This document shows, piece by piece, positions 1,061 through 49,441 of a stretch of 64,000 bases of DNA. The stretch covers positions 3,744,001 through 3,808,000 of the forward strand of contig CBDCDZ010000004.1 of the NCBI GenBank assembly GCA_965215565.1. The letters are read 5' to 3'. This stretch comes from Trueperaceae bacterium (lineage in GTDB: Bacteria; Deinococcota; Deinococci; Deinococcales; Trueperaceae). A program made the translations under genes and the position numbers. Below the pieces are notes generated by a model. The model ran no database searches. It was not told where the DNA came from and saw only the letters and a program-made list of their open reading frames with translations. The number at the start of each line of letters is the position of its first letter. Position 1 is the first letter of the stretch.

Positions 1061-1083
1061 ACAAGGGGTTTCAACCCCTTGTT
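1061..1083. repeat. REP-like palindrome, family A
   Basis: ACAAGGGGTTTCAACCCCTTGTT, identical to 42184..42206. Confidence 0.85.
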
Positions 1084-39371: not shown

Positions 39372-39445
39372 GGGCCCTTAGCTCAGTTGGTTAGAGCAGT
39401 CGACTCATAATCGATTGGTCGTGGGTTCAAGTCCCCCAGGGCCCA
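39372..39445 (+). tRNA. tRNA-Ile2(CAT) (Met-like anticodon, Ile2-type body)
   Basis: acceptor GGGCCCT/AGGGCCC-A; anticodon arm GTCGA-CTCATAA-TCGAT; resembles ileX-type tRNAs; no encoded CCA. Confidence 0.9.
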
Positions 39446-39540: not shown

Positions 39541-39811
39541 CTAGCGTCTGATACCCTTTACCCTTTTTACGCGCGAGGTTTCTGAGACGCCCCAACGTAT
39601 CCTCGTCCAGCCGCAGTGAAGTGCTCGTGCTCCGTTTGCAGACGGGGCGCGCGGGGAATTCCTGTGTAGCAGCTTCGTCCATAAGCTCCTCGCTTCAGAC
39701 GTGCGTGCTCCAAAAGTTATGCTCCTGACGTTCGTTCTTAAAAACGGGTAGGTCGTCCTTGCTATAAACGATGGTGAACCCGTCCTCGGTTTTTTCAGGT
39801 CGCTCTGCCAT
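39541..39811 (-). pseudogene. CopG/BrnA-like RHH antitoxin pseudogene
   Basis: LPVFKNERQEHNFWSTHV*SEELM...TSLRLDEDTLGRLRNLARKKGKGYQTL; internal TGA at 39695..39697. Confidence 0.8.
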
Positions 39812-39869
39812 CGTAAAAGTATACACGGCGCTTAGAGGGCAGTTTAACAAGCAGATGCTAAACTGTCCC

Positions 39870-40085
39870 ATGCGCACTGTAAAAGCTCTCATCAACGAGC
39901 ACGGCAAAGTAGAACTTTTAGAGCCCCTCACGCTGAGTGAAGAGCGCCAAGCCCTCGTCACCATCCTCGACACGCCCACTCAAGAGCCGCGCCCCTTCGG
40001 GCTCTGCAAGGGCGAATTCAGCGTGCCAGATGACTTCGACGCGCCTCTACCTGACGACACTCTGGATGACTTCGAGCGTACGTGA
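39870..40085 (+). CDS. orphan antitoxin-like protein (VapB-type C-terminus)
   Basis: RPFGLCKGEFSVPDDFDAPLP; TAAACT-N5-ATG. Confidence 0.75.
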   Translation: MRTVKALINEHGKVELLEPLTLSEERQALVTILDTPTQEPRPFGLCKGEFSVPDDFDAPLPDDTLDDFERT

Positions 40086-40093
40086 GGCTGCTT

Positions 40094-40498
40094 TTAGTTA
40101 CGCAAATTGATGACCTCAATATTTCCTCTGTACTTTGTCATGTCCCTGTCCACCGTGTAGAGCCGCGTCGCGCCCTTGCTCAGCACCGAGCTGAGGATGA
40201 GCGCGTCCGCCATGCTCAGTCCGTTTCCGTGCGCTAGACGAACCGCCTGGTCAACGATAGGGAGCGCCGTATCATCTAAGAACACCACGTCGTACAGCAG
40301 CGGTATATCGGTGGCTACCTGAAACGCGGCATTTTTGCTCAACATACCCTTCAAGCCGAGCTTCTTCAGCTCGTAAATGCAGACAACGCTTGTCACTAAC
40401 GCATGTTCGCCCTGCGCTGCCTCCTGGGTAAGCTGCCTAACAGTAGGATTCCGCAAGATGAATTCTACGAAGAACCCCGTATCACAGCCGATGGTCAC
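40094..40498 (-). CDS. PIN-domain (VapC-like) toxin
   Basis: CDTGFF, IYEL, ADALIL, TVDRD acidic tetrad; GTGA overlap with antitoxin. Confidence 0.88.
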   Translation of the reverse strand: MTIGCDTGFFVEFILRNPTVRQLTQEAAQGEHALVTSVVCIYELKKLGLKGMLSKNAAFQVATDIPLLYDVVFLDDTALPIVDQAVRLAHGNGLSMADALILSSVLSKGATRLYTVDRDMTKYRGNIEVINLRN

Positions 40499-40710
40499 GT
40501 GCGCTTCTGATCTGCTAGTCGCATACGTTCAAGCTCAGCCACGTACTCTTCGGATACCTCCGCGCCCTCGCTCGCCGCAACTATTCGCGAGAGTGCCGCC
40601 TGCCGCTGGCTTATTTTACTGCCTAAAAACTCCACGAAGTTCAGCACCTCTCGCTGACGCTCAGGGGGCAACTCGCGCAACCTCTCCAAAACTGCCTCTT
40701 CGACGCTCAT
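40495..40710 (-). CDS. DUF2281-like antitoxin
   Basis: LRELPPERQREVLNFVEFL; ATGA overlap with MTase stop. Confidence 0.85.
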   Translation of the reverse strand: MSVEEAVLERLRELPPERQREVLNFVEFLGSKISQRQAALSRIVAASEGAEVSEEYVAELERMRLADQKRT

Positions 40711-43700
40711 GACACACTCCCTTCTACAATCTTAACCTCTTCCTCCGTCAGCCCATAAAGCTCATACACCAGCGCGTCTATCCGCTCGCCCAGCGCCGCA
40801 ATCTCCCGCGTCACGCGCTCTAACTCCGAGCCCGCCGCACCCGCCTTCTGCTCATGCAGCCCCAACATCTCATCCACCATTTTTGTCATGCAGTCGTGCT
40901 GGTGTTTGTCGGTGGGGTTGGAGAGGTTGAGGGTGCGGATGGGGAGTTGTTCGACGTATTGGGTGAAGAAGCGGAGGTAGCCGCCGCGATAAACAGCGAA
41001 TGCGTTACTGTAGACGAACATCATAAGCGCCGAATTGATGAGGGCGAGAAGATATTTATCGTTGCTCGGAAAAAAGTAAGTGGTGTTGACGGAGTAAAAG
41101 TTACCGCAAGCATCTAGCGTAAAATTCCCTCGAGAACCGATGTCAGGGAAGATAATTTTAGATTTTTCAAAAAGGTTGTAGTAGTCGCAGGGTCTCAGCT
41201 CCCACCAAAACTGACCTTTATCCCCGCGCTTTCTTGCTCGTTCTTCAAAGGGTTTCAAATGTTCCGTGATTGCGGGGTATTGCTGCTGTAACCACGCCCA
41301 CTTATCGCTCGTCTCTCCTGAATTCGCGTTCGTCCAGCCATTTGGAAAGAGAATAAGGTGCTTATCGCTCTGCGGAGGCTGATACCTCTTCACATCCCGC
41401 CCCGCCAAAAACGGTTTAATCACCTCTTCGTTTTTCGGGTCTTCGGCGATGAGCTTGTCTCTGGTGGCTTGGTCGATGACGAAGGCTTCATTAAAACCTG
41501 TTTTGATACCGTAGTAGATTTTCCCGTCTACGTACCTCTCTAACGGCACGCCTGCTTTGTTTATCTTGTTCAAGACCTTTTGCGCGTCCTTGCTGGCTAA
41601 GGACCAGCCGCTACCGTCTAGCTCGGCTTGGGGTTGGGCGTAGGCACGCTGTTTGATGTAGCCGCGCAGGTCGTTGTAGGCTAACTCCTCCATCTTGACG
41701 ATGTTCACCTCTTGGCTGGGCTTGTCTCTGCTTACGAAGAGGATGCAGGGGTAGGTGGTGGCGCTTTCAAAGACGGGTAGGTCGCCGTAGTCGATGATGG
41801 TCATGAGGTCTTGCTTTTTGAGCCATTGGCGCAAGGGCTTGCCGTAGTTCGCCCGCATCCACTTGTTCGCGACGATGTAGGAGAAGACGCCTTTTCTCCT
41901 TAGCAGCTTGACGCCTAGCTCGATGAAGTAGACGAAGAGGTCTGCCGCGCCGTGATACGCCTCGTATTGGGCTTTGAGGTGCGGCTTGAGGTCGCCTAGC
42001 GCTTCTTGGCGGACGTAGGGCGGGTTGCCGATGACGATATCGAAGCCACCATCTCTGATAGCTCTGGGTTCAGCAAGGGGCTGAGCAAGGGGCTGAGCAA
42101 GGGGCTGAGTGGGGTGCTGAGCAAGGGGCTGAAGCCCCTTGTTGGTGGCGGTGGCGCTCTCTGGTGAGGTCAGCATGGATTCAACAAGGGGTTTCAACCC
42201 CTTGTTCTCAGGAAGGCGGTGCTTGTCTCTGTTGTGGGTCACGTAGTGCAAGGTGTTGTGAAGTTGCGCGTCCGTCGTGATCGCTTGCGCATGATACTTC
42301 TGCGCCCACAAATTGAGCGGGTCTGTAATGCCGCGTGCTTGCTTGAAGCGGTATGCGGATTTACCTTTGAGCTTGCGGACAATGTCGCTAAGCTCGTTAG
42401 GATCACACGTCAGGACCATATGAACGTGGTCTTGGCAGATGTTGTACGCCGACACCTTCAGGTCGTTTTCGGCGACGGTATCACGGATATAGCGTGTAAT
42501 CTCGACCTCTTGCGCTTCGTCTAGCAGAACGGGTTCACCGCGCTTGACACCGAACGTCACCATGCGTTCGCTCACGCGGCTGTTGTGCGCAACCCAAGTG
42601 ACATGATACGCCTGCAAAGTTTGTGGCGTGTGGATGTGCTGCCGGAAGACCTCACTAAAATGAACGCGGAAGTCGAAGTCCGCCTTTGCGCCGAAGTCTT
42701 GGGCAGACTTAAAGACGTTCGTGATGGTTTGGTCTATACGGGCGGAGAGGTCGCGCTTCTGCTTTTGGCGTGTCTCGCTGAAGTACGCCCGCTTGAGCTT
42801 TTCTAACTCGCGCATCTCGCTGTCGTCTAAGATGGCTCCTTCCAAACTCAGCACGGAGTTTCCTGCGACGATCTTATAGTCTAAGTTGGGCAGCGGCTCG
42901 ATGCCGTCGGCGTCGTCTTCGTCTACGACTAGCGAGAGCCAGAGGCGCAGCTTGGCGATGTCTACGGCGCTACGGTCGATGTCCACGCCGTAGATGCTCT
43001 CCTGGATGGCGCGGCGCTTGAGGGCGTAGGGGGTGCGCTCTTGTGGGTCTTTGAGGTGGGGCGTCAGCGCGGCGCGGGCGCGGACGATCTCGTTCATGAT
43101 GCCTACCGGAAACGCGCCGGAGCCGATGGCGGGGTCGCAGATTTTGATGTTGGCTAGAGCGTCGTCCACCTCTTGCGCGTGCTCGCGGACGCTTTCGGGC
43201 AGCCGGAAGGTGTACTTATCGGTCTCTTTGCCCTTTTTCATCACGCGGGTATCGTTTTCTACGGCTTGGTCGCCTAAGCGGATGAAGGTCTCTAGGTCCT
43301 CCTTGGGGACGCGCGGCTCGTAGACCTCTTCGGTGAGGGCGGCTTGGGTAGCTTGGGGTCGCCCAAAGAGGTCGTCCTGAACAGCTCCGACTATAGCAAA
43401 GGGCTTAAGCCCCTTGTTCAAGCGGGTGTCCAGAAAGCTCACTAGGCTCTCCTGACACATGTAGTGGACGATTTCGCGGGGCGTGTAGAACGCGCCTTTA
43501 GACTTGCGGTCTTCGACTTCCAAGAGGTTTTCAAAGACCTTACCGAGCATCTCGGGGTCTACGGCGACCTCTTTCTCCAAGGGTTCGTCTTCACGCACGG
43601 TGAAGTTGTACAAATCGAACACGTCCATGATGCGCTCGAAGGTCTTGTTTTGAAGCGGTATCGGCACGTTCACCCAGTCGTAGCCGCCGCTCGGCTCGAA

Positions 43701-44666
43701 GAGTCCGCCATTCAAAAAGGGGATTTTGCAGTCAAAGCGGCTGTAGAAGTTCTCGCTGCGCTCGAGGGCTAGGGCTTCGTAGAACAAGGGTTCTAAGATG
43801 TCGTCGAAAAAGTTGGTGTACGGCACGTAATCCTGCTTGTAGAGGCGGCGCAAGAAGTCCTTGGGTCCCGCGCCCCACGCTTCGCCGCGCTCCACGCCGA
43901 GCCAGCCCTTTTTCTGTAAGAAGTATAAGAAGACAACCTGACCCATGAGCCGTTTGGCGAAGTTGGCGGGGGTGAGGTCTTTGGTTTCGAACTCGGTCTG
44001 TATCTCTTGGTTGCGCTTTAAGAGAGCGTCTAGCTCCTCTTTGAGTTCCAGAAAGAGTGCTTTGTACTGCTTGAAGAACTCTGCCGTCACGCTCTCGATG
44101 TCGAAGGCGGCTTCTAAGGCGTTTAGCGTGACCGGAGCGTCCCTGCGCAGGATAGGTAAGAGCTGTTGCTGCGCGGTGTGGGTGCGCTCGCCTTCACCGA
44201 CCAGGAAGGAGTAGCGGCGAGCTGGGCTGAGTTCCTTGCTGGTTTTGCCCGTTTCGAAGTCGAGGCTGTACTCCATGCGCACCAGCGAGAAGCGCCAGTC
44301 GGGGGTGTCGTCGCTGTAGAAGGCGACCAGGGCGGCGTCGCGCTGAATGTCGCCGCGCCCCCGGTCTAAATACTTGGCGACGAAGTTGCGCTGAGTGGTG
44401 CGGGCGCGTTCTAGTTTGCTGTTGCCTTTGAGTTTCACCGCGAGGATGTCTATCTGGTTTTCCTCGGCGTCCGTGAATGAGCCGATGCGCTTGTACTGCG
44501 CGACGTGGTCTTTGTAGTCGTCCCAGATGTAGTTGCCGCTGAGGGCGCGGTCGTCCTTCTCGCCGAACTCCCTGAACACGTTGCGCACAAACGTCCTGAA
44601 ACGCGCCTCGTCGTAGGGCTGGTTGAAGGTCGCTTCGACTAATCTCTTTGCGGCTTGCTCGTTCAC
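40707..44666 (-). CDS. Eco57I/type IIG-like N6-adenine DNA methyltransferase-TRD with in-frame HUH Y1 transposase domain
   Basis: PFLNGGLF, GAFYTP, motif I DPAIGSGAF, YGVDI, motif IV GNPPY, TaqI_C-like TRD (GIKTG, WWELR, KIIFPDI); insert with DHVH and HYVTHN. Confidence 0.93.
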   Translation of the reverse strand: MNEQAAKRLVEATFNQPYDEARFRTFVRNVFREFGEKDDRALSGNYIWDDYKDHVAQYKRIGSFTDAEENQIDILAVKLKGNSKLERARTTQRNFVAKYLDRGRGDIQRDAALVAFYSDDTPDWRFSLVRMEYSLDFETGKTSKELSPARRYSFLVGEGERTHTAQQQLLPILRRDAPVTLNALEAAFDIESVTAEFFKQYKALFLELKEELDALLKRNQEIQTEFETKDLTPANFAKRLMGQVVFLYFLQKKGWLGVERGEAWGAGPKDFLRRLYKQDYVPYTNFFDDILEPLFYEALALERSENFYSRFDCKIPFLNGGLFEPSGGYDWVNVPIPLQNKTFERIMDVFDLYNFTVREDEPLEKEVAVDPEMLGKVFENLLEVEDRKSKGAFYTPREIVHYMCQESLVSFLDTRLNKGLKPFAIVGAVQDDLFGRPQATQAALTEEVYEPRVPKEDLETFIRLGDQAVENDTRVMKKGKETDKYTFRLPESVREHAQEVDDALANIKICDPAIGSGAFPVGIMNEIVRARAALTPHLKDPQERTPYALKRRAIQESIYGVDIDRSAVDIAKLRLWLSLVVDEDDADGIEPLPNLDYKIVAGNSVLSLEGAILDDSEMRELEKLKRAYFSETRQKQKRDLSARIDQTITNVFKSAQDFGAKADFDFRVHFSEVFRQHIHTPQTLQAYHVTWVAHNSRVSERMVTFGVKRGEPVLLDEAQEVEITRYIRDTVAENDLKVSAYNICQDHVHMVLTCDPNELSDIVRKLKGKSAYRFKQARGITDPLNLWAQKYHAQAITTDAQLHNTLHYVTHNRDKHRLPENKGLKPLVESMLTSPESATATNKGLQPLAQHPTQPLAQPLAQPLAEPRAIRDGGFDIVIGNPPYVRQEALGDLKPHLKAQYEAYHGAADLFVYFIELGVKLLRRKGVFSYIVANKWMRANYGKPLRQWLKKQDLMTIIDYGDLPVFESATTYPCILFVSRDKPSQEVNIVKMEELAYNDLRGYIKQRAYAQPQAELDGSGWSLASKDAQKVLNKINKAGVPLERYVDGKIYYGIKTGFNEAFVIDQATRDKLIAEDPKNEEVIKPFLAGRDVKRYQPPQSDKHLILFPNGWTNANSGETSDKWAWLQQQYPAITEHLKPFEERARKRGDKGQFWWELRPCDYYNLFEKSKIIFPDIGSRGNFTLDACGNFYSVNTTYFFPSNDKYLLALINSALMMFVYSNAFAVYRGGYLRFFTQYVEQLPIRTLNLSNPTDKHQHDCMTKMVDEMLGLHEQKAGAAGSELERVTREIAALGERIDALVYELYGLTEEEVKIVEGSVS
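42054..42644 (-). mobile_element. in-frame RAYT/IS200-like Y1 transposase domain plus REP-encoded linker
   Basis: AYHVTW, NICQDHVHMVL (HUH at 42420..42428), IVRKLKGKSA, LWAQKY, HYVTHN (Tyr 42243..42245). Confidence 0.88.
42072..42206. repeat. cluster of family A REP palindromes and 12-bp tandem half-sites inside the MTase gene
   Basis: (AGCAAGGGGCTG)x3, AGCAAGGGGCTGAAGCCCCTTGTT 42120..42143, AACAAGGGGTTTCAACCCCTTGTT 42183..42206. Confidence 0.9.
43395..43418. repeat. family A REP palindrome inside the MTase gene
   Basis: AGCAAAGGGCTTAAGCCCCTTGTT, read as NKGLKPFA. Confidence 0.85.
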
Positions 44667-44687: not shown

Positions 44688-44746
44688 GCGAGGGGCTTGG
44701 CAGTGGCAGTAGCAAGGGGCTTAAGCCCCTTGTTGAGCCCCTTGTT
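44688..44746. repeat. family A REP palindrome with extra half-sites between helicase and MTase
   Basis: AGCAAGGGGCTTAAGCCCCTTGTT 44711..44734, then GAGCCCCTTGTT. Confidence 0.88.
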
Positions 44747-44753
44747 ACCTTGA

Positions 44754-47700
44754 CTACTCATTACCAACTAGATACTCAGACAGGATGACCTCACGCGGCA
44801 CGCTCTCGGTGTCGTCCTGGGCGGTTCTCACAAACGTGCTTTCGCCGATGTGCTGCTTCAACACGTTTAGGATAGTGAGCGGTTGATAGCCCGCTGCTTT
44901 GAGGTCGGACATGACGGTCTTGGTGGTGTTTTTGGCGACCGTGCCCGCCTCTAACGCCTGCCGCACCTCACCCAAATAGACTTCGTCGTCGTCGGTGAAG
45001 CCCTTGAAGCGGGTCACTTCTCGAGACTTCAACATGGTTCTCAGCTTGTTTTCGCTCGAGTGTCCCCCGCCACCTTTAGCGCCGCTCTTGGGCTCGGGCA
45101 AATCTTCGGTGAGCGTCAGCCGAAACGCATCGTCGTTCTTCGCTAAGAGGTCGTAGTACGCGGGGGGTATTTTGCGTCTCGGTTCGTCCGGCTTACACGC
45201 GAACAGCTCGGCAGCTTGGAAAAACTCGAGTTCGTAGTCTGACGCGCCGTCGCTCAGGAAGAACTTCTTGAGCCTGCCGCGCCGGAAAAAGGTGATGAGG
45301 GCGTCTCTATCTGCGCCCTCGACACCTAGAGGTCGATTAGGGAGTCGCTTTGCGCTCCGCGCTTTTTTAGGGAGGCGCTTGACCCGCTCGAACAGCTCGG
45401 GCTCCTTGTCGCGGACGTCCCTTAAAAGCTGCAAATACTGCAACTCGGAGCGCTCGTCCTCTTCCTGCTCTAAGCTCTCCTTGCTCGTTAGCGTCTGGTA
45501 GAGCCTATCGCCAAAGAGTGCGTGCGTGGTCACCTCTTCGTCATCGGTGAGGTATTTGGCGTCTTCGCCCAGCGTGTCGTGAAAGGCTTGAATCTTCGCC
45601 TTGATGTTGCCCTCTAAGCCTAGGTGCGCGTCGCTTTGGTCGGTAGGAAAGAAGTTGAAGACGTAAGCGGTCTCATGCGCCGCGCCGACGCGGTTGATGC
45701 GCCCGACGCGCTGCAACACGCGGGTGGGGTTCCAGGGCAGGTCGTAGTTGATAACGACGTTCGAGCGGTGTAGGTTGATACCTTCAGCGAGCACGTCGGT
45801 AGTTACAAGCACGCGGATGTCGTCTTTTTGCTCGCGTTGGTTCGGGTCGAAATTCGCTTTGATGAGGTCTCTAGCCACCGTAACGCCATGACTCACCCCT
45901 CTATGAATACCGCCCTGACTCGCGTAGAAGAACGCTTTGCCGGGCATCGCCTCTTCCAGGTGCGTGTAGAGGTATTCACCCGTTTCCTTCGACTCGGTGA
46001 AGACGATGAGCTTTTGCCCTTTGAGAAGAGGGTGGTGCGTGACCTCATGAAGGAATTGCTCCAACTTGGGGTCTGTCTCGACACGCTGCCACATCCGCTC
46101 GATGGAGCGCAGCACGAGGAGGTCGTTGTTGAGGCTCACCAGGAAGTCATCCTCGAAGTCGCCCGCCGCGTAACTCTGCACCTCGCCGTGCTCAGCCAGC
46201 TCGATAAGCCGCGCCTCGTCGTCGCTCTCCAAGAGGTCATACACATCAAACTTCTTGCTGATATAGACCGCGCCGCTCCGAAACATGCCGATGAAGCGCT
46301 CGTAAGACTCGGTAAAGCGCCGCACGGTCTTCTTGAAGGCGTAGAAACTGCTCTCTAAGCGCTTGACCAAAACGCCTTTCATGAAGCCCCGAACGTTATG
46401 CTGCGACTGCTGCTCCAAAACGCCGACTTCGTGCTTGAGGTAGAGGAGCGGCGCGTAGCGGGCGTACTGAAACTCTTTGAGGAGTGCGATGGTGTCGTCG
46501 AAGACCTGTCCGGTCGCCTCGTCAAACTGATAGACGATGCGCTCGGGCGCAGCCAATTCGGGGAAGCTCAGTCCTTGGCCTTCCAAGTCCTCGCTGAAGT
46601 AATTTTTGATCTCGGTGCGCGTTCGCCTCACCATGACGTGGTTCAAAACTTTGCTTCTCACCTGCGCGGACGCTTCATTGAGCGCCTGAATGTAGACTGG
46701 GTCGGACCTGTCCCCGTCCACGCTTTTACGTGTCGCCTCGAGCGCCAGCCGCAATTTGTCGAAGAAGCTCTGCAAGTTCTTCACGCCGGGGATGCTGCTC
46801 TTTTTGGCGGGTTGAAAAAGTTTAAGGAGCGCTAGAATGTCCCCCAACTTGTTGTTGAGGGGCGTTGCTGAGACTAAGATCACCTTTTTGCCCGCGCATA
46901 TCTTGTGCAGGGTCTCAAAGGACTGCGTCGCTTCGTTGCGGAAGCGGTGGGCTTCGTCGATAAGGACATAGTCGTACCTGGCCGCGCCCTCTCTAAGCAC
47001 GCGGTCTATCTGCCCTAGGGACTCGATACGGCACTGCGGCACGCCGAACTCGAAGAGGGTCGCCCGCCAATAGTCGGCCAAGACTGGGGGGCAGATGATG
47101 AGCTTGCGTCCGGGGAGTTGCTGCAACAAGAGCGCGGAAATAAAGGTTTTGCCCAAGCCCACCACATCGGCTAAGAAAACGCCGTTATACGCCTCGAGTA
47201 TCTTCTTCGCGGAGAGCACCGCCTGACGCTGATAAGCGAGTTCCATGAACCCTTCAGGCAGGTAAAAGTCAACGTCCTGGTCGATGTTGATGTCTTCTTT
47301 GAAATATTCGTATAAGAACTTGAGATAGATACCAAAGGGTGTAACGTTGTCGCTGAGCCAAGTCTTTGTTCTGAGCGTGTCGATGTAGGCTTCGGAGATG
47401 TCCACGCTTTCAGCCCATAGCTCTTCAAATTTGGCGAGGGCGTATTCGACATCTGGCGCGTCTTTAAGTTCGACATTGAATTCGCGCTGGGCGACGAGCC
47501 CGTTTTCAGAGAAGTTGCTCGAGCCCGTAATGACCCGTCCGAAGTCGCGGTCGTCCTCCCCAAAGCGGCTGATGTAGACCTTGGCGTGCATGTTTCGGTC
47601 CCGAAAAGCTCGCAGTTCCAACTTGCCTGACTGGATGAATTCGATGAACTTCCTTGCCGAAATCTCCATGTCCAGGTTGTCAGCGGACGCTTCCATCTCG

Positions 47701-48026
47701 CGCACCAGCGCGTCACTAAACTCAGCTTGGACCTGGTGATGAGAGGCGAAACCAAGCTCGCCTTGCTGAACCCCTCTTTGGGCGTCAAGTCGGGCGGTCT
47801 CTAACAGCGTGAAGGCGTTGCGGTCTACCGACAAACCCACCAAGATGCGCACCTTATCAACAGTCTCCAGGGACTCGTAAAGCCTACGAAAGCCGCTCGT
47901 CCTGAAATAGCCCACCAGTACGTCGAAGTACTGAACGTCGCGCAGCGTCCTTACGAAGCGGTCGTAGAGCGTCTCGTCCGGCTCGTTGGTGAAGAACTTT
48001 AGATCGTTTCGCGGTATCGTCTTCAC
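44754..48026 (-). CDS. PLD-nuclease / SNF2-like helicase fusion (restriction-associated)
   Basis: VGYFRTSG, MHAKVYI..TGSSNFS..EFN (PLD); LADVVGLGKT, DEAH, SATP, AEGINL, QRVGRINRVG. Confidence 0.93.
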   Translation of the reverse strand: MKTIPRNDLKFFTNEPDETLYDRFVRTLRDVQYFDVLVGYFRTSGFRRLYESLETVDKVRILVGLSVDRNAFTLLETARLDAQRGVQQGELGFASHHQVQAEFSDALVREMEASADNLDMEISARKFIEFIQSGKLELRAFRDRNMHAKVYISRFGEDDRDFGRVITGSSNFSENGLVAQREFNVELKDAPDVEYALAKFEELWAESVDISEAYIDTLRTKTWLSDNVTPFGIYLKFLYEYFKEDINIDQDVDFYLPEGFMELAYQRQAVLSAKKILEAYNGVFLADVVGLGKTFISALLLQQLPGRKLIICPPVLADYWRATLFEFGVPQCRIESLGQIDRVLREGAARYDYVLIDEAHRFRNEATQSFETLHKICAGKKVILVSATPLNNKLGDILALLKLFQPAKKSSIPGVKNLQSFFDKLRLALEATRKSVDGDRSDPVYIQALNEASAQVRSKVLNHVMVRRTRTEIKNYFSEDLEGQGLSFPELAAPERIVYQFDEATGQVFDDTIALLKEFQYARYAPLLYLKHEVGVLEQQSQHNVRGFMKGVLVKRLESSFYAFKKTVRRFTESYERFIGMFRSGAVYISKKFDVYDLLESDDEARLIELAEHGEVQSYAAGDFEDDFLVSLNNDLLVLRSIERMWQRVETDPKLEQFLHEVTHHPLLKGQKLIVFTESKETGEYLYTHLEEAMPGKAFFYASQGGIHRGVSHGVTVARDLIKANFDPNQREQKDDIRVLVTTDVLAEGINLHRSNVVINYDLPWNPTRVLQRVGRINRVGAAHETAYVFNFFPTDQSDAHLGLEGNIKAKIQAFHDTLGEDAKYLTDDEEVTTHALFGDRLYQTLTSKESLEQEEDERSELQYLQLLRDVRDKEPELFERVKRLPKKARSAKRLPNRPLGVEGADRDALITFFRRGRLKKFFLSDGASDYELEFFQAAELFACKPDEPRRKIPPAYYDLLAKNDDAFRLTLTEDLPEPKSGAKGGGGHSSENKLRTMLKSREVTRFKGFTDDDEVYLGEVRQALEAGTVAKNTTKTVMSDLKAAGYQPLTILNVLKQHIGESTFVRTAQDDTESVPREVILSEYLVGNE

Positions 48027-48646
48027 GGCGCTACATCCTGTCTGAGAGGTTTGAAGTTTGGCGGCAGCCCCGCGTTGTGCTCTCGACTAGAAGAGTGAAC
48101 ATGCGGCGTCCGTTGGACACGCCCCTAGTAGCGTCAGCATACTTTAGATTGACTTTTGACACGTTGCACGTAAAGTAACATGAGGCTCGCACAGTTAGTG
48201 TGAAAAGTTTCGTGCTTGCCCTCTTACGTGCCTTATCCGAGCAACGCGCTGAGCGGTATAGTGACGGGTAAGCGCTCCAAATAGGCGGGCGTGAGCGAGT
48301 TCATAGAGAAATGCGCAATGAAACGTAGAAACGTGGTATAAGCACCCTTCAAAGTACCACGCTTATTTTGGGGTGCACCCTGCTCTAGTAGGACAAAGCA
48401 AGAAACTTTCTTAACGTCTTGCGAAAAGAAAGCGAAGGGCTCGAATCTTTTTTAGGCTACCATGTTGTTGAGCATAGTTCTCCGAGAGTCTGCGTCTATA
48501 CGAGTTAAGAAGCAATGGGCTAGAGCTTGTGGGTAGAGAGAAACGCTCCCCATACTCCGAAAAACTCGTCATGATAAGTTGTGAACTCTGAATTCGGAGT
48601 CTGTGTGGAGGTGCGTCCTCGAGCCCCCACCCCGTATGATGGATTT

Positions 48647-49441
48647 ATGGAAATCTACACCGAAGCCAACCGCGCCAAGTGGAATAAGCAGGCGGATATC
48701 CACGCCAGAGTGACGCTCGAGGGTCTTTTAGAGCGGGTCAGTGCGCCGGACTTCAGCACCTTTGATGAGGTCGAGCGTGCTGTCTTTGAGAGGATAGGGC
48801 TGGAGGGCAAAGCGGTTGCCCAGCCGAGCTGCAACAACGGGCGTGAACTTATCTCGGTTAAAAAGGCGGGCGCGGGGCGCTGCGTCGGCTTCGACATCTC
48901 GGAGAAGTTCACCGAACAAGGTGAGCGGCTCGCCCAAGCGGGCGGCGTGGACATCGAATTCGTCAGGACGAGCGTCTACGATATCCCGCATGAGTACGAC
49001 GCTCAGTTTGACCTCGTCTACGTGACGATCGGCGCGCTCGGCTGGCTACCCGACATGGCGGCGTATTTCGAGGTGATCGCTCGGCTGCTCAAGCCCGGCG
49101 GAGACCTCTTTTTGTATGAGATGCACCCCATTTTGGACATGTTCGAACCCGAGAAGGGTTTAGAAGTCGTCACCTCGTACTTCACTACCGAGCCCGACGT
49201 CGCGGACGATGAGCCCGACTACTACGATCCGTCGCAGATCGTCGCCGGGACCTCTTACTGGTTTCACCACAAGCTCTCGGACATCATCGGGAACTGCTTG
49301 CGAAGCGGGCTCAACCTCACCTCGTTCGAGGAGTATCCGCACGACCTCTCGGAGGTGTATAGGTCCTTCGAGGCGTTCGGGGCGAAGCCGCCGCTGTCGT
49401 ACTCGCTCACGGCGCGAAAAGGGGCGCAGAAGAGGGTGTAG
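48647..49441 (+). CDS. class I SAM-dependent methyltransferase
   Basis: CNNGRE, VGFDISE, FDLVYVTIGALGWLPD, LLKPGG; TATGAT-N6-ATG. Confidence 0.9.
   Translation: MEIYTEANRAKWNKQADIHARVTLEGLLERVSAPDFSTFDEVERAVFERIGLEGKAVAQPSCNNGRELISVKKAGAGRCVGFDISEKFTEQGERLAQAGGVDIEFVRTSVYDIPHEYDAQFDLVYVTIGALGWLPDMAAYFEVIARLLKPGGDLFLYEMHPILDMFEPEKGLEVVTSYFTTEPDVADDEPDYYDPSQIVAGTSYWFHHKLSDIIGNCLRSGLNLTSFEEYPHDLSEVYRSFEAFGAKPPLSYSLTARKGAQKRV

Follow-up and report, generated by a model that had tools for sequence, protein, structure and literature searches.

A RAYT-like Y1 HUH transposase domain translated within an Eco57I-type DNA methylase and its link to a genomic family of REP hairpins

The window, that is, the whole 64,000-nucleotide stretch of DNA that was analysed, contains a DNA methylase gene with a transposase domain in frame in its catalytic region and, upstream of it, a partner gene for a nuclease-helicase protein. 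The two genes and the motifs of the methylase are as follows.

40707..44666, minus strand: carrier gene, Eco57I/MmeI-like gamma-class N6-adenine DNA methylase of 1319 aa (Pfam, PADLOC and fold matches)
43110..43136, minus strand: methylase motif I, DPAIGSGAF (D, G, S, G and F invariant in 71 aligned sequences)
42141..42617, minus strand: conserved Y1 HUH (RAYT-like) domain, residues 684-842 (Pfam Y1_Tnp, alignment and model)
42420..42428, minus strand: HUH motif, H747-V-H749 (D746, H747 and H749 invariant in 117/117 insert-bearing sequences)
42243..42245, minus strand: candidate catalytic Tyr808 (Y-V-T-H-N; Y808, N812 and H816 invariant in 117/117)
42015..42026, minus strand: methylase motif IV, NPPY (in 120/120 aligned sequences, the rows being chosen by NPPY)
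44754..48026, minus strand: upstream partner gene, PLD(HKD) nuclease and SNF2 helicase of 1090 aa (Pfam and PADLOC)

The carrier gene is a single open reading frame without a stop codon or frameshift. In agreement with the preliminary description, which was made from the letters alone, all of the quoted motifs are present in this frame, and NPPY and DPAIGSGAF lie intact on either side of the insert, where they had been placed. The protein shares its motif order with the Eco57I/MmeI-type gamma N6-adenine methylases (Type IIG/IIL, CamA and BREX PglX): motif I (D/E-P-x-x-G-S-G-x-F) precedes motif IV (NPPY), and a TaqI-like TRD is also present. It also has the Eco57I and TaqI_C domains and the fold matches of this group, which in structure comparison are CamA, PglX/BrxX, M.BseCI and M.TaqI. 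Unlike them, the carrier has a whole transposase domain between motif III and motif IV. The Pfam Eco57I profile is broken in two at about profile position 70, and REase_MTase_IIG, the best Type IIG profile of PADLOC (894 bits; label, Type IIG-like), aligns in two stretches that skip the insert. The domain scan returns Y1_Tnp, a split Eco57I profile and a TaqI_C TRD, the three profiles that the preliminary description had named.

Residues 1-480 of the carrier have no Pfam or PDB match other than the methylase start, and the Atlas offers a weak DUF7814/MmeI_hel lead and nothing else. No convincing nuclease match for this region was found in Pfam, PDB or Atlas. An assignment of the carrier to BREX PglX or DISARM DrmMI was rejected: the BREX and DISARM models score far under their cut-offs (PglX models, 66-88 bits against 400-900), and no other BREX genes lie nearby. 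The partner gene contains the Pfam domains PLDc_2, SNF2-rel_dom and Helicase_C and is recognized by PADLOC as 'HKD+Snf2' (188 bits) and as DrmD-like. This HKD-SNF2 partner belongs to this methylase backbone only. Housekeeping genes lie beyond it, and the neighbours include a PIN toxin. With its methylase motifs kept, the carrier would most likely still perform methylation, paired with the neighbouring HKD-SNF2 protein in a restriction-like manner.

The insert is located between FSEVF (residues 670-674) and the GGFD-NPPY stretch of the carrier and contains AYHVTW (residues 686-691), DHVHM, KLKGKS, LWAQKY and HYVTHN; GGFDIVIGNPPY occupies residues 873-884. The extent of about 197 codons that was first assigned to the insert stands, and its conserved part is restricted to residues 684-842. 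Two segments, residues 611-651 and the QPLA repeats at 843-870, occur only in the carrier protein or its nearest kin. Pfam Y1_Tnp (PF01797; gathering cut-off, 23) matches the whole protein with 49.4 bits (E 6e-13) and the 197-aa segment alone with 53.5 bits (E 3e-14). In a 600-aa model, the Y1 region adopts a beta-alpha-beta-beta-alpha-beta-alpha fold with a pLDDT of about 90-97, and Tyr808 resides on a helix (model residues 319-330). A model of the domain alone reaches a pLDDT of 95.5, and the Y1 domain is thus predicted to fold independently. The top Foldseek matches are ISDra2 TnpA, the TnpA-REP structure 4er8 (with a REP hairpin) and IS608 TnpA, with E values of 2e-7 to 4e-5 and TM scores of 0.48-0.66 against 2xma, 4er8, 2vjv and 2f4f. 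Motif I-III and motif IV of the methylase are thus separated by a complete, RAYT-like Y1 HUH domain. The RAYT-like identity proposed earlier is therefore borne out by a Pfam match above cut-off, by fold matches and by alignment.

Could the segment be an artefact or an ordinary piece of the methylase fold? We regard the chance of this as negligible. No point in its support was found, whereas identical junctions occur in 117 independent homologues, insert-less relatives run FxEVF straight into GGFD, and the Y1 segment has a fold and a protein family of its own. The independent assembly of these 117 homologues excludes, in practice, a misassembly. None of the objections foreseen in the preliminary description (no Y1_Tnp match, a misassembly or an ordinary methylase fold) held.

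The fused methylase-Y1 protein is a widespread architecture that is visible in databases; JGI labels such proteins 'methylase subunit/REP element-mobilizing transposase RayT'. Literature searches found no published description of a methylase-embedded Y1 arrangement. The insert occupies the same site in 117 of the 120 best homologues, which rules out a one-off selfish insertion, and these insert-bearing relatives are 31-68% identical. Among 30 mid-length relatives, 27 are Eco57I-type methylases, one is a Type ISP specificity protein and two show Y1 only; the behaviour of a freely mobile in-frame element, entering genes of many kinds, was therefore not seen in this clade. The clade is spread patchily over phyla. 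The fused genes stand alone amid unrelated housekeeping genes, with one fused copy in each of five genomes checked, and no conserved partner gene was found among 41 neighbouring ORFs, mostly housekeeping, at 21 loci. Standalone members of the same clade are hairpin-flanked genes between housekeeping genes such as nuoD/nuoE. A large branch of the family escapes surveys that drop Y1 proteins as 'too long'; 'unexpectedly long proteins' were set aside by Quentin et al. 2018 (PMC6006769), a paper in which no word starts with 'methyl'.

On the methylase tree, the presence of Y1 is clustered, requiring 13 changes compared with about 56 for shuffled labels. The mean pairwise identity is 45% for the Y1 core and 46% for the motif IV side of the methylase. 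The association of Y1 with the methylase is probably old and mostly inherited with the motif IV-TRD half. The invariance of the key residues in 117/117 sequences, the inheritance with this methylase half and the single carrier family argue against a recent accidental parking of the domain. The domain could also be harmless in another way, as an ancient in-frame insert that a surface loop tolerates and that has no function left. The loop does vary in length among relatives and adjoins a disordered linker, and 118 of the 120 closest backbone relatives work without the insert. However, an inert passenger is expected to lose its HUH and Tyr residues, yet they are invariant in 117/117 sequences at identities of 31-68%; the Y1 core is as well conserved as the motif IV side, and the DNA sequence of a hairpin beside it is preserved, with compensatory changes in its stem. 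We therefore consider an inert passenger very unlikely.

The hairpins in and beside the gene are listed below.

42183..42206, minus strand: hairpin 1, AACAAGGGGTT-GA-AACCCCTTGTT, read as NKGLKPLV/NKGLQPLV
42122..42141, minus strand: hairpin 2, CAAGGGGCT-TC-AGCCCCTTG, read as NKGLQPLA
42072..42132, unstranded: tandem 12-nt half-arm repeats, 5.1 copies, coding for the QPLA linker, which is disordered in the model
43401..43412, unstranded: third hairpin-like palindrome in the methylase, residues 417-423, NKGLKPF
44714..44731, unstranded: hairpin AAGGGGCTTAAGCCCCTT with its half-arm repeated, in the spacer that separates the methylase start from the helicase gene

Hairpin 1 occupies the canonical site, about 39 nt past the Tyr codon and just after the Tyr helix. 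The cognate hairpin core is CAAGGGGTTNNAACCCCTTG. A perfect hairpin is present at the canonical site in 34 of 69 related loci from many phyla, with locus GC contents of 24-48%, and is almost identical across phyla, synonymous positions included. In an alignment that consists solely of loci selected for having the hairpin (34/69), 11 of 12 stem pairs exhibit changes on both sides, and the observed values were reached by none of 500 shuffles. Diverged relatives carry hairpin variants with compensatory changes at the same site. The NKGLQPLV peptide could in principle be kept for protein reasons alone, and this explanation is ruled out by the compensatory variants and by nucleotide identity at synonymous sites in AT-rich genomes. 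A DNA hairpin of 18-24 nt can stay conserved across phyla within a coding sequence. The same hairpin flanks standalone relatives on both sides, at -415 to -520 and at +37 to +180 nt relative to the Tyr codon, whereas the upstream hairpin is mostly missing from the fused copies; none was found upstream at the left border of the insert studied here. Rfam, searched with E values up to 1, assigned no known RNA family to the hairpins, its only matches being a tRNA (39372-39445) and two chance matches below the threshold. The hairpin sequence was not found in the published literature.

The genome contains 78 copies of the hairpin (control, 0). Open frames of at least 150 aa cover 84% of the genome but contain only 14 of the 78, and the remaining 64 lie outside. 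The commonest version, the TTGAAA variant (53/78), is identical to the 18-nt core of hairpin 1, which adjoins the Y1 domain. The link to REP hairpins is thus stronger than initially described, given that the hairpin is translated within the gene and belongs to a 78-copy genomic family. Five relatives without the domain contain 10, 1, 0, 0 and 0 TTGAAA copies and 12-21 copies each of the canonical TTGCAA variant. In the set of relatives, all three genomes with a close Y1 domain have hairpins, none of 52 hairpin-free genomes has a close Y1, and six genomes have hairpins (2-28 each) without one. These six genomes, together with the 10 TTGAAA copies of G001, which has no close Y1, indicate that hairpins can persist or arise without the Y1 domain. 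Hairpins are few in five other fused-gene genomes (4, 1, 14, 1 and 2) and reside mostly in or near the gene, and REP upkeep therefore cannot explain the kept catalytic residues there. Hairpin orientation showed no clear strand bias along the chromosome in ten bins.

With moderate confidence, we propose from these sequence comparisons that the insert is a RAYT/TnpA-REP, subclass 2.4-like, that lives in a methylase gene, would be catalytic and would serve the REPs of this genome. The RAYT would operate as an in-frame, co-translated domain in the loop between motif III and motif IV of an Eco57I-type methylase. By analogy with E. coli TnpA-REP and the IS200/IS605 TnpA proteins, the Y1 domain may bind its cognate hairpin in single-stranded DNA and nick and rejoin the strand beside it. 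As the sole Y1 domain of the genome, it probably serves the genomic REPs, maintaining or spreading the 78-copy extragenic hairpin family, and its action could also account for the multiplied hairpins and half-arms in its own linker. RAYTs are the textbook 'domesticated' bacterial transposase, with a host benefit that is unknown. The carrier offers a single tractable protein for the joint study of DNA methylation and the putative hairpin cutting, and the near-identical insert-less allele and the sister genomes without the domain provide a natural contrast that bears on whether a RAYT drives the REP population.

The REPtron, comprising a RAYT/TnpA-REP (such as E. coli TnpA-REP, PDB 4er8) and REP hairpins, has several features in common with this arrangement: a single genomic copy, a Y-x-x-x-N motif in the Y1 HUH core, short GC-rich cognate hairpins that both adjoin the gene and occur scattered through the genome, mainly in extragenic positions, and a patchy distribution across phyla, as for this Y1 clade. 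A profile search likewise found a single Y1_Tnp match in the 4.49-Mb genome. In-frame REP insertions inside tnpA-REP genes are reported as a hallmark of subclass 2.4 by Quentin et al. 2018 (PMC6006769); in the scheme of Bertels et al. 2017 (PMC5581495), this subclass is RAYT group 4. The carrier also has in-frame hairpins within the gene, and judged by its features, the insert is closest to subclass 2.4. Unlike a REPtron, the insert has no gene of its own and no start or stop codon, and it is translated within a methylase catalytic domain; the fused copies mostly lack the upstream hairpin. The NCBIfam RAYT model NF047646 scores 53-58 bits, under its cut-off of 80, and is nevertheless the best-scoring Y1 model.

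The IS200/IS605 TnpA proteins (ISDra2, IS608 and IS200) provide the best sequence and fold matches of Y1 among solved structures, and the insert appears to share their HUH and single-Tyr chemistry and their hairpin-recognising logic. It differs in being a single copy with no TnpB domain or tnpB gene among the scanned neighbours. In addition, its Tyr motif ends in N, whereas subclass 1.1 reportedly has Y---Q (PMC6006769). An IS200/IS605 insertion sequence was rejected: there is one copy, no left-border hairpin and no TnpB domain, and the NCBIfam IS200 model NF033573 scores 47-51 bits, under its cut-off of 55.

Alternatively, the Y1 domain may have been recruited by the restriction-modification enzyme as an effector, either as a nickase or binder of single-stranded invading DNA (ssDNA phages, conjugative entry or phage replication forks) or as a tether of the methylase to single-stranded hairpins. 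The invariance of the catalytic residues (117/117), the clustering on the methylase tree and the nearly constant methylase family and site of the carriers (27 of the 30 mid-length relatives) are consistent with such recruitment, as is the fact that Bacteroidota genomes keep the domain though they have no REP population to serve. However, no result links the domain with defence, N-terminal nuclease modules (HSDR_N and MmeI_N) are already present in many carriers, and the same clade also occurs as the hairpin-flanked standalone genes described above. Furthermore, the strict pairing of Y1 with one self hairpin indicates self DNA as the substrate. We thus consider a recruited effector unlikely. 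The preliminary description had offered a selfish passenger or a domesticated nickase and had pictured an undescribed defence system; the data favour neither of the first two options and do not show the third. The architecture is widespread and already labelled in databases.

Inteins and homing endonucleases likewise place a selfish-type enzyme in frame beside a catalytic motif that is highly conserved in the host protein. Their chemistry differs from HUH/Tyr action on single-stranded DNA, and to our knowledge, the Y1 insert, unlike inteins, has no splicing motifs and stays in the mature protein.

A near-identical allele, P0123, lacks the insert. Its flanks are 94-98% identical to the carrier, and the two alleles differ in the following segment, which is about 35-40% identical.

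40947..42851, minus strand: recombination cassette, residues 606-1240, containing the Y1 domain, motifs IV-VIII and the TaqI_C TRD (comparison with P0123)

Both insert-bearing (117/120) and insert-less alleles are thus at hand for the alignment of homologues that had been envisaged. The comparison indicates that the Y1 domain moves with the motif IV-TRD half as a recombination cassette, and the difference from P0123 in this lineage would be a recombinational cassette swap. A mosaic allele with a swapped TRD half resembles the 'domain movement' reported for the specificity halves of Eco57I/MmeI-type methylases in H. pylori work (PMC3983042).

Does the embedded Y1 domain edit or mobilise its own gene? 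It might use border and internal hairpins as recombination ends, so that the motif IV-TRD cassette is excised, inserted or exchanged (a specificity switch) or the whole gene is moved as ssDNA. Such a self-editing locus, if true, would be a transposon with a cargo protein that includes the transposase as one of its domains. The solitary position of fused genes among unrelated housekeeping genes fits this idea, and the Y1-bearing half is what differs between the two near-identical alleles. Moreover, in L035, L048 and L065 the fused gene has hairpins on both sides, 146-220 nt upstream and 4-42 nt downstream, and L043, L044 and L064 have one downstream only (6/25 loci in all). However, bordering hairpins are absent from the other 19 of the 25 loci, none was found in the window past the carrier stop codon or beyond the helicase gene, and the five genomes checked contain a single fused copy each. 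The borders of the swap, at residues about 605 and 1240, fall away from the hairpins and fit ordinary homologous recombination. A self-mobilising gene is therefore quite improbable in our judgement, and a RAYT that serves the genomic REPs is the reading that we retain. The third palindrome, at 43401..43412, sits where P0123 differs from the carrier.

The gene that carries the Y1 domain encodes an Eco57I/MmeI-like N6-adenine methylase and is accompanied in the window by the following genes.

40707..44666, minus strand: methylase ORF with the Y1 insert, 1319 residues
Upstream of the methylase gene: gene of a PLD(HKD)-SNF2 protein, 1090 aa
40094-40498, minus strand: PIN-domain toxin, just downstream of the methylase gene
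39771-40498: the PIN toxin together with its small, overlapping partner ORF, next to the methylase gene on its downstream side
39372-39445: tRNA gene, downstream of the methylase gene
48581-49441, opposite strand: class I SAM methyltransferase, 286 aa, just past the helicase gene

In Pfam, the Eco57I match of the methylase is split in two, with the second stretch comprising residues 870-966 (profile positions 70-171). The Y1_Tnp match lies between the two halves at residues 707-811 (E 6e-13, 49 bits; cut-off 23), and MmeI_Mtase and TaqI_C match residues 497-578 and 1084-1243, respectively. The 197-residue segment delimited in the preliminary description gives 53.5 bits with Y1_Tnp by itself. 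Of the NCBIfam models, REP_Tyr_transpos scores higher (53-58 bits; cut-off 80) than transpos_IS200 (47-51 bits; cut-off 55), and neither reaches its cut-off. The top PADLOC profile, the REBASE-type 'REase_MTase_IIG' (894 bits), aligns in two stretches, the first being residues 2-677, and skips the insert. No nuclease assignment was obtained for residues 1-480 with Pfam and further searches. The preliminary description had placed a Y1 domain inside the methylase, and this placement is borne out by a Y1_Tnp match above the cut-off, flanked by Eco57I halves in a frame without stop or frameshift. Its motifs and coordinates were all correct, and the three domains that it named for fixing the borders, Y1_Tnp, Eco57I and TaqI_C, were all matched.

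The insert is recurrent and not a one-off. A homologue search with residues 620-960 as the query found PF01797 together with methylase domains in 117 of the best 120 matches, and the matches span Bacteroidota, Balneolaceae, Paceibacteria, Fidelibacterota, Kapaibacteria and other groups. Alignment of 120 sequences (122 proteins less the insert fragment and one protein without NPPY) yielded the insert-bearing set that the preliminary description had sought, with 117 of the 120 sharing one identical site between F-x-E-V-F and G-G-F-D. D746, H747, H749, Y808, N812 and H816 are invariant in all 117 insert-bearing sequences, and motif I and NPPY are likewise invariant in the aligned sequences. The conserved part of the insert covers residues 684-842; local additions make up residues 611-651 and the QPLA repeats (843-870). 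The Y1 core and the methylase's motif IV side are equally conserved, with mean pairwise identities of 45% and 46%. The invariance of the catalytic residues argues against reading the domain as an inert passenger.

An AlphaFold2 model of residues 481-1080, built from 71 aligned sequences (mean pLDDT 83.8), predicts that the insert adopts a beta-alpha-beta-beta-alpha-beta-alpha fold (pLDDT about 90-97) with Tyr808 on its last long helix and with disorder limited to the repeat linker. In a fold search, the methylase shell matches CamA, PglX/BrxX, M.BseCI and M.TaqI. When the domain is folded alone (pLDDT 95.5), the top matches are Y1 transposases only, namely ISDra2 TnpA, E. coli TnpA-REP and IS608 TnpA, and a PDB sequence search is in agreement. 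The 4er8 structure, E. coli TnpA-REP in complex with a REP hairpin, gives a best query TM of 0.55 against the isolated domain. Thus, the structure prediction suggested at the outset points to a Y1 transposase fold.

Behind the Tyr helix, the coding sequence contains translated palindromes, and similar palindromes occur in and beside the gene.

42183-42206: hairpin 1, behind the Tyr helix, AACAAGGGGTT-GA-AACCCCTTGTT, peptide NKGLKPLV
42122-42141: hairpin 2, next after hairpin 1, CAAGGGGCT-TC-AGCCCCTTG, peptide NKGLQPLA
43401: similar palindrome inside the methylase gene
44714: similar palindrome in the spacer that separates the helicase gene from the methylase start

Hairpin 2 is followed by 5.1 copies of tandem 12-nt half-arms, and the hairpin stretch folds as single-stranded DNA with a z of -4.7. 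In a relative of the same family (G018), a standalone 185-aa Y1 gene that is 58% identical lies between nuoD and nuoE, with 'KGLQPLV' both before and after it. A domain-alignment scan using one genome per species yielded 73 loci in many phyla. Motif IV is in frame downstream in 45 of them, nearby in 3 (two being Gracilibacteria with an in-frame TGA) and absent in 25, 4 of which run off a contig end. In Gracilibacteria MAGs (loci L058, L092 and L093), TGA codons lie in frame within the Y1-methylase frames, which look split under table 11; such codons would be expected if TGA encodes an amino acid in these bacteria. Among 25 loci examined around fused genes, 6 have a hairpin 4-42 nt behind the gene, and 3 of these have another 146-220 nt before it. 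Relative to the Tyr codon, standalone genes have one hairpin upstream (-415 to -520 nt) and one downstream (+37 to +180 nt), and fused genes mostly retain just the one at about +40 nt. In 34 of 69 loci, with a locus GC of 24-48%, the stretch from +27 to +75 nt forms a perfect 7-20 bp stem, in most cases (A)ACAAGGGGTTGCAACCCCTTGT(T). Loss of the palindrome leaves decayed peptides such as SEKLQELV and NKDLQPLV.

When these 34 loci and the window were aligned, 11 of 12 stem pairs showed changes on both sides and 92% of cells paired, compared with 36-57% in slid controls; the loci were chosen for having a hairpin, and the pairing percentage is thus partly built in, whereas the compensatory variants are not. 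The observed covariation values were reached in 0 of 500 shuffles. Compensatory variants such as CAGACGGCT-TC-AGCCGTCTG and AACAATGGGTT-GC-AACCCATTGTT therefore show that conservation of the hairpin acts on DNA and that the peptide is a by-product. The linker is a hot spot, in which one protein holds up to five KGL(Q/K)PL copies, and hairpin-like peptides also occur elsewhere in 40 of 145 fused proteins. A diverged subclade (L079-L091) has different hairpins, CAGACGGCT-TC-AGCCGTCTG and CAGAGGGCT-TC-AGCCCTCTG, and a second in-frame hairpin about 112 nt ahead of the Tyr codon, between HUH and Tyr; such a hairpin has also been described for TnpA-REP subclass 2.4. Quentin et al. (2018, PMC6006769) characterize this subclass by a patchy spread and in-frame REP insertions inside its own gene, and the clade of the window's domain matches it in both respects. 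A term search of the accessible text of Bertels et al. (2017, PMC5581495) gave no mention of fusions. We found no description of a Y1/RAYT-methylase fusion or of the hairpin sequence in the literature outside subscription journals; automatic annotation already labels such proteins both methylase and RayT.

The hairpin belongs to a REP family. The window's genome (4.49 Mb) holds 78 matches to the pattern AAGGGGYTNNARCCCCTT, versus 0 for the reversed control. In most copies (G000:C4), a repeat of ~80 nt surrounds the hairpin as its core; it is oriented, and its flanks are conserved. This was seen at window positions 1063-1080 and genome-wide. The copies are singletons, and only the pair within the methylase gene is less than 300 nt apart. 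Although 84% of the chromosome falls in open frames of 150 aa or more, just 14 of the 78 copies lie in such frames. This genome has no Y1_Tnp match other than the domain inside the methylase. The TTGAAA-loop variant, identical to the hairpin beside the domain, accounts for 53 of the 78 copies and the canonical TTGCAA for 13. Five domain-less relatives hold 10 (G001), 1 (G002), 0, 0 and 0 TTGAAA copies, and 15, 21, 20, 13 and 12 TTGCAA copies. All 10 TTGAAA hairpins of G001 lie on one contig in one orientation; orientations in the window's genome are balanced (29 and 29). G001, a member of the same genus, retains only the last 77 or so methylase codons at the syntenic locus, which indicates that the gene was lost there.

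Across 61 genomes, one of them unpublished (G035) and negative in all counts, the hairpin is present in 9. The genomes with a close Y1 all bear hairpins (78 copies in the window's genome, 35 in G018 and 6 in G014), a further 6 have 2-28 hairpins without a close Y1, and all 52 genomes that lack the hairpin also lack such a Y1. The association runs in the expected direction and is imperfect.

Cutting and joining at hairpins are established for E. coli TnpA-REP, IS608 and ISDra2. By analogy with TnpA-REP and IS200/IS605 TnpA, and from the variant pattern, the domain would cut and join at these hairpins and may drive TTGAAA expansion. This proposal is weakest where other phyla are concerned, because their fused genes retain the domain although no REP population is present: five other fused-gene genomes contain 4, 1, 14, 1 and 2 hairpins, mostly in or near the gene, and 4 of the 5 have further Y1 matches, mostly in short frames. 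A function in cis, exerted at the gene's own internal hairpin, is therefore possible, as is a benefit to the host. Among the rival readings, a defence nickase has the most credit, followed by a self-mobilising or self-editing gene and then by an inert passenger.

The domain moves together with the motif IV-TRD half of the methylase. It is absent from 118 of 120 relatives of the N-terminal 600 residues. One of these relatives, P0123 (1146 aa), is an insert-less allele of the kind that the preliminary description proposed to look for, and it is 96-98% identical over residues 1-605, about 35-40% identical between the flanks and 94% identical over 1241-1319. The middle part, residues 606-1240, is closest (70-77%) to the Y1-bearing homologue P0003. 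Thus, one of the two alleles is a recombinant. On a methylase tree of residues 873-1080 with the insert omitted, which has 178 rows (domain present in 101, absent in 77), the domain label changes 13 times, at least 5 changes being forced by well-supported branches, versus about 56 changes with shuffled labels (0 of 500 as low as 13). On a Y1-domain tree of 251 rows (165 fused, 80 standalone and 6 unclear), the fused state changes 23 times versus 62-73 in ten shuffles; both trees were built with FastTree from short regions, and all change counts are rough. The carrier is nearly always one methylase family: 30 mid-length relatives comprise 27 methylases of the Eco57I type, a single Type ISP specificity protein and two proteins that show Y1 only.

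Two separate copies of only the last 77 or so methylase codons (73-78% identical) exist in G001 (locus L013, G001:C1:1253975-1257196), and G019, G009 and G034 likewise have C-terminal tails on their own; on one side, the swapped cassette ends at this conserved tail. The window's genome has another large methylase frame (G000:C4:1475361-1477331, 1349 aa), which is 58% identical to residues 874-1318, has a different N-terminal part, lacks the Y1 domain and is a possible recombination partner.

P0003 (1844 aa), the closest Y1-bearing homologue, is a single polypeptide that joins SNF2 helicase domains to the methylase. This fusion speaks for a functional connection between the window's two neighboring genes. 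No recurrent partner of fused genes was found in other phyla, where they are solitary among housekeeping genes. In G001, the methylase remnant is adjoined by the same toxin pair, which makes the locus syntenic; it has the look of an island beside a tRNA gene. The G+C content is about 53-60% over 39-47.5 kb versus 60-68% just before, which fits an acquired island. The 286-aa SAM methyltransferase weakly matches mad2 in PADLOC (54 bits) and is probably outside the system.
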